Shown: positions 45,614-51,790 of the stretch, piece after piece | How positions within the stretch are numbered: position 1 is the stretch's first letter | Layout of the letters: every line of letters starts with the position of its first letter | Notes under the pieces: model-generated | The model's database searches: none | Told to the model about the DNA's origin: nothing | What the model saw: the letters and a program-made list of their open reading frames with translations, nothing else | Translations under genes and position numbers: made by a program | Assembly (NCBI GenBank): GCA_031364805.1 | Contig: JANLWW010000011.1 | Location: 9,149 to 73,148, forward strand | Reading direction: 5' to 3' | DNA from: Acidobacteriota bacterium | GTDB lineage: Bacteria > Acidobacteriota > Vicinamibacteria > Vicinamibacterales > UBA2999 | DNA: 64,000 nt

Positions 45614-46087
45614 ATGAATTCGCAGGAGGCGGAAGTGGCACAGTGGCTGAAACGCATCCGCGGCGCAATCGGGATCGGCCTGACTTGGGCAGCAGCATGG
45701 TTTGGTGCGGGCATCCTGCTGGCGCGGGTGCCCGGTTTCTACTCCGACGTCCCGTTTGCCCTGCTGTTTGCTCCGCTCGGCTTTGTGACCGGCGTCATGT
45801 TCTCCGGGATCCTGGTGGCTATCGAGCGCCGTCGCAGGTTTGATCGCGCGTCGCTCTCGCGATTTGCGGGGTGGGGCGCCGTGAGTGGCCTTCTGCTATC
45901 CGGGCTGCTCGTCGTCGCCGCGGCCCTTCGAGGGGAGAGCTGGTGGGGCGAGTTTCTGGTGTTTGGCCCGCCCCTCGCGCTATCGAGCGCGGCGTCCGCA
46001 GCTGGTTCGCTCGCGGTCGCCAGAAGGGCGCAGCGTTGGCGGAGCCTGCTTGCCCAGTTGAGTGCGGACGGCTCGAGCGACACCTAA
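45614..46087 (+). CDS. four-helix membrane protein of unknown function (cassette ORF, reversed orientation)
   Basis: ATG preceded by AAGAGG. Four hydrophobic helices. The TAA stop lies inside the ACCTAAC core of the adjacent attC. Confidence 0.55.
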   Translation: MNSQEAEVAQWLKRIRGAIGIGLTWAAAWFGAGILLARVPGFYSDVPFALLFAPLGFVTGVMFSGILVAIERRRRFDRASLSRFAGWGAVSGLLLSGLLVVAAALRGESWWGEFLVFGPPLALSSAASAAGSLAVARRAQRWRSLLAQLSADGSSDT

Positions 46088-46164
46088 CGCCGGCGCTGAG
46101 CCGCGCGCGGCGGCCACCGGGAGACAATGACAATCGGCGCGACGGCTCCAGCGCCTTGTTAGCC
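46082..46164. other. integron attC site (83 bp)
   Basis: ACCTAAC ... GTTAGCC cores. The arms pair as 7 bp, bulge, AGCCG/CGGCT, bulge, 5 bp. This is the same architecture as the other two attC sites. Confidence 0.75.
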
Positions 46165-46223
46165 AGTCGCTTGGGTTGGCGCCGTTCGCGTTTTGTCGAG
46201 CATGTCCGATTGCCGCACGCACA

Positions 46224-47867
46224 TCACGGCTTCAGCAGTGCCAGGAGCGCCTCAGCAAGTGTCGCTCGCCAATGAACCGCCTCGTGAGCGGTTGCGCTCT
46301 CGCGATAGGTGACGTCGTATCCCTTAGCAATCAGTACATCGCGAAGGTGCCGGTTTCCGCCGGTGATTCCTTCGTCGAGCACCATCTCATGAAGCGGCAA
46401 CCCGGCGCTCGGCACGTTTTCATAGAGTCCGGTCTCTAGGTAGAACCTCACCGGAGCGCGTGCCGCTGCCGCAAACATCTGTGCGATCAGGTTCGGCTCT
46501 GCGCCGCCTTCGGGACGGAGTCGGAACGCACCCGACTGGGACAGCACATTTCCGAAAGCTTCCGGATGCCGCAGCGCGATCAGCCCTGCCGCCAGGCCGC
46601 CAGCACTGGAGCCACCGATCACGAGGTCGCGCGCAACAGTACTGATGGAATACTTCGCGCGGAGTGCGGGCAGGAGTTCGCGGACGATCGCGGCGCCCAG
46701 CGTGTCCGCTCCGGCATAGCCCAACTCCACGTTCCGATTTACTGAATTGAGGAAGCAGACAACGACTGGCCGAATGCGTCCGTCATTAATCAGGTTATCC
46801 AGCGTCGGTGTCGCGTTGATCCAATCTGCGTTTACGTAGGTGTATCCATCAAACAAAACCAACAAGGGATACGGCCCCGATGCCGCGGCATAACCCGGCG
46901 GGGTGTACACCCACATGTCACGTTCGTTCTTCAGTAATTCCGACTTGAACGACGCTTGCTCGACGGTGCCCAACCTCGTCGGAGAACGCCGAGCCCAGCT
47001 CTCATCCGGCGCCCCGGCCGTGTCGAGCACCGAGCTTGAATCCACCATCGCGTCCGAGCGATCAGGAAAGCGGCGCGGATTCAGTGGGTCCAATTGATCG
47101 GTGAAGAGCCGGTCGCTCGGCTGCGCCACGTTGGGCGATAACAAGTAGGTAAATCTACTGCCGCGGTGAAGCCGAATGGTCTTGTACCAGACATCGGTGT
47201 TGAGCACCCGACTCATGTAGTAATCGTCCCCGCGAAACGCGGCCATCGGCCACCCGACGAGGACGTTGTAGGTTTCGAAGCGCGCCCTCCAGAGGAATGT
47301 GACGAGAGTGTCGTCGTCGTCGGTACCTGCGATCGTCTCGATCAGCGGTCCCTTACCAGCCATCTCTCTCCAGAACTCAGTAACGGCATCCGCGCGCCCT
47401 CGTTCCACGTCTTGAAAAAGCAGGCGGATACGATTACTCCGATTGACCTCCTTCGGGGCTACCACTACGCCGCGCATTCGAGTCGCCACGGCTTGCTGAT
47501 TCAATTGAAGGGTGGAGGTGGCGGGTCGCGTACCCCCCACGGCGACGCGAACCTGATAGCGACCCGTCGTCGGGGCCACAAACCCCACGCGCCTTGCCAT
47601 GCCTCCCAGGTAGAACGCCCTGACCTTCATCCCGACGACCGGTTCGCCGACACCGTCCAGGAATCGCACCGTACCCTCCGCGCCCATCAGTTGGGCGGTC
47701 CCGGAGATAAGGTCGCCGGCGTCGGCGACCAGGGTGTAAATGTGCGACTCGCCACCGGCAATGGCTCGCGTGACAGGCGAGCCGTACTTTAGGGCCTCCT
47801 GCGCTTGCGACGGCGATGCAATCCACGATAGGAGCACACAACAAGCGAGACCTGGCGTCACTCTCAT
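46224..47867 (-). CDS. secreted esterase (enterochelin-esterase-like alpha/beta hydrolase with N-terminal beta domains)
   Basis: 547-aa ORF with a signal peptide. The C-terminal putative-esterase fold has a GGSSAGG nucleophile elbow. The N-terminal part has a DVWYKTIRL...FTYLLSPN beta-sandwich. Confidence 0.75.
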   Translation of the reverse strand: MRVTPGLACCVLLSWIASPSQAQEALKYGSPVTRAIAGGESHIYTLVADAGDLISGTAQLMGAEGTVRFLDGVGEPVVGMKVRAFYLGGMARRVGFVAPTTGRYQVRVAVGGTRPATSTLQLNQQAVATRMRGVVVAPKEVNRSNRIRLLFQDVERGRADAVTEFWREMAGKGPLIETIAGTDDDDTLVTFLWRARFETYNVLVGWPMAAFRGDDYYMSRVLNTDVWYKTIRLHRGSRFTYLLSPNVAQPSDRLFTDQLDPLNPRRFPDRSDAMVDSSSVLDTAGAPDESWARRSPTRLGTVEQASFKSELLKNERDMWVYTPPGYAAASGPYPLLVLFDGYTYVNADWINATPTLDNLINDGRIRPVVVCFLNSVNRNVELGYAGADTLGAAIVRELLPALRAKYSISTVARDLVIGGSSAGGLAAGLIALRHPEAFGNVLSQSGAFRLRPEGGAEPNLIAQMFAAAARAPVRFYLETGLYENVPSAGLPLHEMVLDEGITGGNRHLRDVLIAKGYDVTYRESATAHEAVHWRATLAEALLALLKP

Positions 47868-48036
47868 GTCAACACTCTTTGCCGGCGGTGGGTAATCGAA
47901 TTATGGTCACGGCCATTTCGCGGGTCTGGCTAGACAGTATGGCTGTCCCGGACAGTGACCCGTCTCACGTTGTTATCGTGGATTACTCGAGCCGGCGAAG
48001 GCGTCGCGCAGAGCCACCCACCAACGGAGGCGGGTC

Positions 48037-48480
48037 ATGGCGAAACGTAACATGTTCGTGGGGATGGATGTCCACAAGGCATCGATCGACATCGCGCTCG
48101 CCGAGGAGGGCGGGAGGTGGCTGCACCAACGCGACGCCTGCGATTCGTGTACGAGGCCGGGCCCTGTGACTTTGGCATTCACCGGTATCTCACGACGCGC
48201 GGTGAGGGTTGTGTCGTCGTGGATCCGTCGAGCATGCCGAAGCGGAGTGGCCGGATCAAGACCGACCACTCGAGCGGCCCGAGTGTGCGGCGGGATCACC
48301 GAAGCGGGAAACCCGCACGCGCGACGGCTGCTCGCCGAAGCGGCGTGGGCGTATCAGGGTGTGCCGCCTCGGTCGACAGATGCTCTATCGACAAGAGGCG
48401 CACCCGAAACCGATTTGCGCCATCGCCTGGAAGGCGCAATTGCGTCCTCGACACGGCCGAGGCTAGGGCGAGGCAGCTCC
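48037..48480 (+). pseudogene. IS110-family transposase remnant (frameshifted, internal deletion)
   Basis: MAKRNMFVGMDVHKASIDIA (frame 1), RFVYEAGPCDFGIHRYL...RIKTD (frame 3), ITEAGNPHARRLLAEAAW (frame 1) and IAWKAQLR (frame 2). The middle of the protein is missing. Confidence 0.65.
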
Positions 48481-48770
48481 GCGACGAACCACAGTCTGGG
48501 CGGTACCCAACCCGCGGATATCAGCAGCGTCAACCGTCGCTAAAACGCGGTGCCGCCGACCAGACGGACCTGACGAACGAAGCGCCCGGAAAAAGCGGGC
48601 TGAGAACGAAGAGCTCACGGCGCTGAGACGGGATCGATCTGTCTGCTTGACAGAAGACAGCCATATCAGCCGTATCAACGCCTGCGGCTGACTTGCGGCG
48701 GCCGCGCGACTCTGTTCCGAGCCGGGAGAGTACCCGTGGGGCCGTCGACAAGTGCAGCCACTTGATTCTT

Positions 48771-50896: not shown

Positions 50897-51019
50897 TGAT
50901 CTGTAAGCGAACGGTCGGGCCCGCGTGCCTATTCGCGATCGCGTCGAGTGCCAACCTCAGAGTCGAGGAACCCGGGAGTTGATTCATGCTCTTTCGGAAC
51001 GCGTAGCACGCCTAACGTT

Positions 51020-51087
51020 CCAAATGAGCCGCGCGCGTCACGAGCCGACGTGCGACGGCTCCATTTGGGTGTTAGGCGGCGTGGCTC
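51020..51087. other. integron attC site (68 bp)
   Basis: GCCTAAC ... GTTAGGC cores. The arms pair CCAAATG/CATTTGG, bulge, AGCCG/CGGCT, bulge, then a GC stem. Confidence 0.8.
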
Positions 51088-51100
51088 AATTGCGCGTGAG

Positions 51101-51619
51101 CTATTTGCCTTCGCACTCTTTTGGCGTCTTAAATTGCTTACACGCCTCATTGTCTTGAAGTTCGATTTCCTTGCCCGTGCGAACTTCGAGGATCTTGAGG
51201 GTCGTTCGAAAGATGTCCTTCCCAAGCTCGAAGACTGCTGCTTGCTCTTTGCCTGTCGAGTCCTTGTAGGCGATCGTGAGAAAATGATTCCTCTTCTTCG
51301 AGAAAAGCGCGAGCGGACTGACCATGATCGCCACTCCTACGCGCCGGCCGGCCTTTTGACCGTACTCAAGTGACGTGACTGTTGCATACGGGATCGTCGC
51401 CGAGCCTTTGGAACCCGCATCAAAAGTCAAGACTGACTCAGACGTAGTGACCAACCGACCTTCGGTCTTCTCCTTGATGCCGGTGAGCGTGCCCCCGACA
51501 TACTCGGCCTTGTCTCCACCGACAGCAAACAGCGCACCTGTAACGACCCCGATCAGGAGGACCGTAACAACAGCAGGACGGTAGCCGAAACGGCGAGACG
51601 AGCTGGGCTTCGATTTCAT
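51101..51619 (-). CDS. cassette ORF: N-terminally anchored protein of unknown function
   Basis: ATG 51619 is preceded by TAAGGAG. TM segment AVVTVLLIGVVTGALFAV followed by a roughly 120-aa beta-rich domain. Lower GC than the flanks. Confidence 0.6.
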   Translation of the reverse strand: MKSKPSSSRRFGYRPAVVTVLLIGVVTGALFAVGGDKAEYVGGTLTGIKEKTEGRLVTTSESVLTFDAGSKGSATIPYATVTSLEYGQKAGRRVGVAIMVSPLALFSKKRNHFLTIAYKDSTGKEQAAVFELGKDIFRTTLKILEVRTGKEIELQDNEACKQFKTPKECEGK

Positions 51620-51706
51620 TGGACTCCTTAGTGGCCAGGCACTCCTGGGTTGCCTTCCGCGAGACTCGTCAAATGACACTTCTCAATTTCGACGTGAGTG
51701 TTGCCC

Positions 51707-51790
51707 GCCTAACGCGTCAAATGAGCCGCGCGCCCTGGCGACACAATGGCACGAGACACTGGGCGCGTCGGCTCCATTTGAATGTTAGCC
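51707..51790. other. integron attC site (84 bp)
   Basis: GCCTAAC ... GTTAGCC cores. The arms pair TCAAATG, bulge, AGCCG, bulge, CGCGCCC. The stop of the DUF5615 ORF lies in the GTTA of the right core. Confidence 0.8.

Follow-up and report, generated by a model that had tools for sequence, protein, structure and literature searches.

A 64,000-nucleotide stretch of contig JANLWW010000011.1 from an Acidobacteriota bacterium (GCA_031364805.1, positions 9,149 to 73,148; hereafter the window) carries a small complete chromosomal integron, in which the integrase gene (intI), an attI region and four gene cassettes follow one another on the minus strand throughout. Its host is an uncultured soil-type bacterium, probably Acidobacteria-like. 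Three bulged hairpins in this array are very probably its attC sites, with the plus strand as bottom strand and with unpaired bases of the form T/A-N6-C (inner bulge, spacing, outer bulge) as a natural, functional variant that predominates in related environmental integrons; the probability of this reading as a whole is roughly 0.88. That the hairpins are attC sites, that the bottom strand, the recombinogenic one, is the plus strand and that the cassettes are read on the minus strand had already been proposed in a sequence-only reading of the window, and is supported. For the strand there are five independent and concordant lines, namely the arm that bears the bulges, the direction of the open reading frames (ORFs), chimeric R boxes, purine-rich loops and the layout of related loci.

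The hairpins, all written here as the plus (bottom) strand, lie at 51707-51790 (attC 1), 51010-51077 (attC 2) and 46082-46164 (attC 4, the last of the array). The sequence-only reading had the first and last positions right and set the middle site at 51020-51087, a slip of 10 bases, since its GCCTAAC starts at 51010 and its GTTAGGC ends at 51077. From 5′ to 3′, the parts of attC 1 are GCCTAAC-GCG-TCAAATG-AGCCG-CGCGCCC...GGGCGCG-T-CGGCT-C-CATTTGA-AT-GTTAGCC, those of attC 2 are GCCTAAC-GTT-CCAAATG-AGCCG-CGCGCGTC...GACGTGCG-A-CGGCT-C-CATTTGG-GT-GTTAGGC, and those of attC 4 are ACCTAAC-GCC-GGCGCTG-AGCCG-CGCGC...GCGCG-A-CGGCT-C-CAGCGCC-TT-GTTAGCC. All three share a 7-nt R box, a spacer of 3 nt on one arm and 2 nt on the other, a 7-bp stem, a bulged C, an AGCCG/CGGCT stem, a second bulge (T, A and A, respectively), a GC stem and a variable loop. 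Folding with DNA parameters returns the same architecture, with minor local deviations in two of the three minimum-energy structures, at -24.8 kcal/mol for attC 1 (z -4.45 relative to shuffles), -26.1 kcal/mol for attC 2 (z -6.88) and -25.3 kcal/mol for attC 4 (z -2.81). The single common fold claimed beforehand is confirmed by folding and by the covariation described below, except that R-box pairing within a site is incomplete (6/7 positions at 51707 and 5/7 at 46082), as the chimeric cassette junctions predict. Similarly, the conserved AAC/GTT triplets of the terminal inverted R′/R″ boxes are present in every site, while the fuller motif RYYYAAC...GTTRRRY that had been ascribed to all sites breaks down at one position of GTTAGCC, the R″ box of attC 1 and attC 4. 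The central spacer between the R and L boxes is present, asymmetric and short, and is equally short in related sites.

Both bulges stand on the 3′ arm of the plus strand in 3/3 sites, the arm that faces the AAC triplet. They are C51774/5 and T51768 in attC 1 (T-N5(6)-C), C51061/2 and A51055 in attC 2 (A-N5(6)-C), and C46148/9 and A46142 in attC 4, which agrees with the earlier description of a C followed by A or T. The combination of G and T, a typical though not a defining feature of attC sites, is absent from this strand; in folds of the minus strand the bulges are G plus A or T and sit on the 5′ arm, again as described. Because the outer C is part of a CC doublet at every site, either C may be the unpaired one, which makes the spacing to the inner bulge 5 or 6. 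With the second C unpaired, the bulges are located 8 and 15 nt from R″ and 6 bp apart, which by our own reading is exactly the geometry of attCaadA7.

Across the three copies, which have a mean column identity of 76%, 94.9% of the cells are paired and seven pairs are changed on both sides. None of 500 shuffles attains this level, and slid registers leave only ~30-37% paired. When the window is scanned, filters off, by a covariance model of the three hairpins (R1), these sites alone are matched (97, 78 and 96 bits for attC 1, 2 and 4; E 1e-16 to 1e-20), the next and unrelated match having an E of 0.045. Neither R1 nor a second model, R2, built from R1 matches, detects a further attC to the left of 46082 in the window, and no family reaches its gathering score in an Rfam scan of the window. 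As GC-rich hairpins placed after ORFs, the sites could superficially be generic repetitive extragenic palindrome (REP)-like elements or terminators without any tie to an integron. This explanation has next to no probability and fails because R1 matches three sites only; all three copies in 64 kb are located beside intI, they retain the AAC/GTT triplets, and their homologues form multi-site arrays beside intI in many phyla. The REP-like scatter raised as a counter-possibility in the sequence-only reading was not found, and with no further copy in the window a REP-like element is rejected.

Experiments have established that the bulge-bearing arm decides which strand of an attC site is chosen, through the position of the extrahelical bases and not their identity (PMC5027507). 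Every cassette ORF is read on the minus strand and has its attC after it. A crossover at 5′-RYYYAA|C-3′ also predicts that R boxes should be chimeric, and this pattern is found: GTTAGCC at 51784-51790 is a perfect complement of GGCTAA at 52377, GTTAGGC at 51071-51077 of GCCTAA at 51707, and GTTAGGC at 50407-50413 of GCCTAA at 51010. R″ thus matches the next RYYYAA toward attI perfectly at 3/3 junctions, whereas the R boxes of one and the same site are mismatched in attC 1 and attC 4. On the plus strand the loops are rich in purines. Folding both strands, a check suggested by the sequence-only reading, yields stable hairpins, with the plus strand better by 0.5-1.7 kcal/mol; purine-rich loops and a better-folding bottom strand make up the skew reported for attC bottom strands (PMC5027507, PMC5371416). 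The opposite polarity, in which the minus strand would be recombined, would provide the textbook G and T/A bases, though on the 5′ arm, and the minus strand folds nearly as well (-24.0 to -24.8 kcal/mol). It is nevertheless very improbable, and is rejected on the bulge arm as the established determinant, ORF direction, R-box chimerism, the purine skew of the loops and position relative to intI, all of which favour the plus strand.

The same polarity is observed in relatives. One genome per species was scanned for relatives of the integrase, which gave 80 loci from many phyla, chosen by IntI similarity only; the best relatives are 61-64% identical and come from metagenome-assembled genomes (MAGs) of Acidobacteria and Acidimicrobiia. 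R1 has 94 matches in these loci and R2 has 240. Without exception the models match the expected strand, which is opposite to intI and downstream of it in loci of inverted layout, and on the same strand and upstream in loci of classical layout. Among 162 adjacent pairs of sites, R″ is perfectly complementary to the next R′ toward attI in 125 and to its own R′ in 64, and the longest ORF between sites is on the top strand in 130/161. Restricted to C-type sites (109 adjacent pairs), the corresponding figures are 88 and 36, with the ORF on the top strand in 88 cases and on the bottom strand in 21.

For the preferred reading, the proposed course of recombination is as follows. The plus strand, when single-stranded, would fold into the bulged hairpin, and IntI would bind its R box and L region in the manner of the VchIntIA-VCR structure. 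Both bulged bases, on the double-prime (3′) arm, would flag this strand as the substrate, and cleavage and exchange would take place between the A and C of 5′-RYYYAA|C-3′ at the 5′ end of each site (51712|51713, 51015|51016 and 46087|46088). The partner site would be attI at 52377-52383, since the polarity of the crossover places attI at ~52377-52572 and its crossover box at 52377-52383.

The intI gene (52573-53577, minus strand) encodes an integron integrase of 334 aa. It scores 413.5 bits against TIGR02249 (cut-off 265), while the XerC and XerD models remain far under their own cut-offs, and Pfam recognises Phage_int_SAM_4 and Phage_integrase domains. The protein aligns end to end with VchIntIA (2A3V; E 5e-79), and the alignment is unbroken over residues 209-245, so that the extra IntI segment between patches II and III is present. 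The catalytic residues are all present (R144, K169, H275, R278, H301 and Y310, mapped onto 2A3V by inspection). At the outer bulge, 2A3V mapping assigns K154, R166, K217, Y218 and W227, which is the IntI1 pattern (Q145, W157, K209, Y210 and W219 in VchIntIA), and at the inner bulge A240, F248 and R249, as against P232, H240 and H241 in VchIntIA. Position 249 is His in 33 of 34 other aligned sequences, VchIntIA included, and Arg here, while F248 is common to the two closest IntI relatives, both of which carry arrays. The altered pocket may be tied to the A inner bulges or may be a sign of decay.

Decay would make this a relic integron, whose hairpins are attC sites by descent in a system that no longer recombines, has lost pocket residues and has been invaded by insertion sequences (IS). 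Such a history could account for R249 at a near-invariant His, A240 in place of Pro and F248 in place of the first His, for the two IS1111-type elements, one of them in or beside an attC, and for an array of only four cassettes. It is unlikely, however, as the intI reading frame is full-length and retains the complete set of six catalytic residues, the hairpins are undecayed, R-box chimerism is perfect at every junction, and F248 recurs in the two array-bearing relatives. An identical IntI protein is moreover found in several metagenome samples. Among three metagenome contigs that encode it, two run on into the same first cassette and one (L083, a Logan SRR20217180 contig) breaks off precisely at window position 52383, the G of G|TTAGCC. 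A contig end at the crossover base hints at branching of the assembly graph at this point, and at cassette turnover within the population.

That the array is chromosomal is indicated by its flanks, where housekeeping genes (for a YchF GTPase, ThyX, a SpoU methylase and a PEP mutase) are found along with one for an MFS transporter. The sequence-only reading held that the position of intI and attI agrees with the strand assignment; it does, albeit only through an "inverted" layout in which intI is upstream of the cassettes and codirectional with them, not divergent (PMC4889954). In integrons with an inverted integron-integrase, known from Treponema and others, intI likewise runs in the direction of the cassettes, and its 3′ end faces the array (Cury et al. 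2016, PMC4889954). The host lineage differs here, the best IntI relatives being 64% identical and from Acidobacteria MAGs, and the layout is not a clade marker because Cury et al. 2016 found the group to be paraphyletic.

In several papers the outer extrahelical base is named "the conserved G", or the two bulges are described as typically G and T (PMC2727003, PMC7439510). The sequence-only reading, which judged the bulges of these sites non-canonical, is correct against the textbook, yet C and A/T have precedents and are not rare among integrons of this kind. Larouche & Roy 2011 list attCdfrA1 as A-N7-8-C and the blaVIM-2 attC as also C-type, and in their assays A-N6-C and T-N6-C constructs were both excised by IntI1, IntI2*179E and SonIntIA, while IntI3 had a narrower range, mainly T-N6-C sites (PMC3053210). 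C improved excision for IntI3, IntI2*179E and SonIntIA and was often better than G (PMC3053210). Binding data of Johansson et al., as cited in PMC3053210, indicate that these base substitutions have no effect on IntI1 binding. The canonical geometry of the bulges, together with these tested A/T-N6-C precedents, identifies the bases found here as a known and functional variant.

A census of related sites suggests that environmental arrays of this kind normally have the C-type variant. With an explicit test for the 3-bp L helix, the outer bulge in the IntI-anchored genome loci is C in 77 sites, G in 21, A in 6 and T in 2 (unresolved, 37); by locus majority, 22 loci are C, 8 are G and 1 is A, and T-N6-C is the commonest single class. 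The positive control for this final census, attCaadA7, returns T-N6-G. An earlier census based on minimum-free-energy (MFE) folds left 40 sites unclassified and missed the G-type array of locus L053, since the 3-bp L helix is unformed in MFE folds. A structural scan of the IntI-anchored loci that is blind to base identity gives C 42, G 10, A 7 and T 2; its relaxed criteria produce one match in shuffled DNA, and a stricter version gives 36 matches, on both strands.

The family extends into metagenomes. Its exact core TGAGCCGCGCG...CGGCTCCA is found on at least 120 metagenome contigs, most of them with JGI-style contig names, and R2 detects full attC sites in multi-site arrays on these contigs. 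The sites that share a contig with the hairpin attC family, which were not selected by pattern, have an outer C in 56 cases, G in 2, A in 1 and T in 0 (unresolved, 16). Twenty-three of the full attC sites on the core-bearing contigs are 84 nt long, the best being 85-87% identical to 51707-51790. Examples of this 84-nt subfamily are L099:9789-9872, L137:717-800 and L117:431-514, plus ~20 other metagenome loci. Its recurrence across metagenome contigs points to a shared cassette pool and not to a private array. The view of the sequence-only reading that these are the homogeneous attC sites of a sedentary array consequently stands in part: the array is chromosomal and three of its four sites belong to one family, but it has four attCs only, the fourth is from another family and looks G-type, and the family is widespread on metagenome contigs.

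The excess of C could also reflect co-adapted recognition, in which the integrases of this environmental group would specifically need or favour C, a pyrimidine, as the L″ bulge and the sites would form a distinct specificity class, so that the variant would not be neutral. C is indeed about four times as common as G in the relatives and near-universal in arrays with the hairpin attC family, and the improved excision of C-type sites by IntI2*179E, IntI3 and SonIntIA (PMC3053210) is in keeping with such a preference. Gln at IntI position 154 (Q145 of VchIntIA) occurs in 4/8 G-majority and 1/21 C-majority loci (L001-L079), a weak association computed without phylogenetic correction. Across the 29 clear C- or G-majority loci, none of the pocket residues tracks C against G cleanly; R166, K217, Y218 and W227 do not differ between C- and G-type loci and agree with IntI1, an enzyme that acts on both (PMC3053210). 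Mixed arrays are known besides (L010, L029, L041, L044 and probably the present one), and no link between bulge identity and inverted or classical layout is seen in the IntI-anchored loci. Co-adaptation is a rather improbable explanation.

Several points weigh against the preferred reading of T/A-N6-C as a natural, functional variant. The bulge assignments depend on MFE folds, and the CC doublet allows N5 or N6. C-type sites served as seeds for the covariance models; the scan blind to base identity concurs but is small. Two IS1111-type elements break up the array, which is short, and A240, F248 and R249 in the inner-bulge pocket could mean that the activity of the integrase is impaired or altered. 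Lastly, the unpaired spacer of 3/2 nt, as opposed to 5-6 nt in textbook sites, might reduce recombination, given that Bouvier 2009 reports a significant drop on inverting the spacer or altering it toward full pairing.

The sites can be placed among known systems. attCaadA7 of class 1 integrons and the VCR of Vibrio cholerae, both T-N6-G, have the same AAC/GTT R boxes, bottom-strand hairpin, bulges on the double-prime arm (8 and 15 nt from R″, with a 6-bp stem separating them), apical GC stem and variable loop; the present sites, in contrast, have C as outer bulge, A as inner bulge in attC 2 and attC 4, and a mostly paired central spacer with 3/2 nt unpaired instead of ~5-6. The bulge identities are like those of attCdfrA1 and the blaVIM-2 attC (PMC3053210), which unlike the present sites belong to mobile class 1/class 2 cassettes of clinical bacteria; there is no sequence similarity, and the spacing in attCdfrA1 is 7-8, not 6. 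Taxon-specific environmental attC types, for which an Acidobacteria model is included, have been described (Ghaly et al. 2021, PMC8352920), and as in the present family their attC sequence and structure are common within lineages or environments; bulge identity is not discussed in that study.

For the window itself, these results amount to the annotation of a small complete integron, with intI, attI, four cassettes and two IS1111-type elements, in which the strand and the cassette bounds are settled. More broadly, C is ~4 times as common as G in arrays chosen by their IntI, at the very position called "the conserved G" (PMC2727003, PMC7439510). The dominance of C over G at the outer bulge of these environmental arrays is a modest lead, and a refinement more than a surprise because Larouche & Roy 2011 already show that C works. 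It touches on attC detection models, the design of synthetic attC sites and the question whether bulge identity biases the flow of cassettes between environmental and clinical integrons. A further-reaching proposal, that the "conserved G" of the L″ box is a sampling artefact of clinical and Vibrio integrons, that C (as T-N6-C) predominates across environmental ones of many phyla, this one included, and that some integrases, such as the present one with A240/F248/R249 in its inner-bulge pocket, have co-evolved with non-T inner bulges, is speculative and probably wrong as it stands. If true, bulge identity would define recombination specificity classes that divide cassette exchange between environmental and clinical pools.

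The array comprises four attCs in ~6.3 kb, three of one family and the fourth of another. The attI region (52377-52572, minus strand) has a predicted crossover box GTTAGCC, which on the plus strand is the GGCTAAC at 52377-52383 that perfectly complements R″ of the first attC. A second GTTAGGC box, at 52408-52414 (minus strand), precedes the crossover box by 31 nt within the attI region and may either serve as an additional repeat bound by the integrase or be left over from a former junction.

All four cassettes are on the minus strand. Cassette 1 (51713-52382, bounds from R-box crossover logic) encodes a DUF433 antitoxin-like protein (ORF 52086-52310) and a DUF5615/PIN-like protein (ORF 51785-52105), as assigned by Pfam. 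This DUF433/DUF5615 (PIN-like) gene pair resembles a toxin-antitoxin module (51785-52310), and the final codons of its second ORF run into the R″ box of attC 1. Cassette 2 (51016-51712) has a 192-aa ORF (51101-51679) and cassette 3 (50405-51015) has two ORFs (50450-50896 and 50769-50987), all without a family match. Cassette 3 ends in an R″-type box, GTTAGGC at 50407-50413, and no intact attC is detected at this end by R1, nor by R2 at E up to 0.01. Cassette 4 (46088-47930) carries a secreted esterase-like ORF (46224-47867) with PF00756 Esterase and Enterochelin_N matches; its upstream bound is masked by an IS.

The end of cassette 3 is abutted by an IS1111-family element (48767-50404, plus strand) with a frameshifted transposase at 48823-49894, its ends being inferred by the 7/3-nt rule of PMC11187229. 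It has the subterminal inverted repeats CAGGCCTCCCCC (48774-48785) and GGGGGAGGCCTG (50390-50401). Two fragments of the transposase match NF033542 / PF01548 and PF02371, each under the curated cut-off, so the element is a degraded copy. A long non-coding region lies downstream of its transposase gene (tnp), as has been described for the IS1111 group, in which some members have one end of an attC as their target (PMC11187229). The subterminal inverted repeats, the downstream non-coding region and the position at one attC end are shared with the IS1111-attC elements ISKpn4 and ISPst6 (PMC11187229); the transposase here is frameshifted, unlike theirs, and the insertion point is approximate. In a plasmid collection its relatives reach ~67% DNA identity at most, which is uninformative. 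An internally deleted IS1111-like copy (47931-48668, plus strand, bounds approximate) has inverted repeats TATGGCTGTC at 47938-47947 and GACAGCCATA at 48656-48665, and an ORF fragment with a weak IS110 match.

Between the two elements is an attC-like hairpin of the other sequence family (48671-48768, plus strand), which in its fold has A and G bulges on the 3′ arm and which R1 matches weakly (48674-48766, 13.5 bits). It is probably the body of an interrupted fourth attC of G-type, and a G-type fourth site would mean that C- and G-type attCs are mixed in one array. When this attC is rebuilt by excising both IS, the hairpin body is clear, while the R boxes and the exact IS ends are ambiguous; one join regains GGCTAAC, at the cost of an atypical IS end. 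Near the right end of the deleted copy there is also a 17-nt direct repeat, ATATCAGCAGCGTCAAC at 48518-48534 and ATATCAGCCGTATCAAC at 48663-48679.

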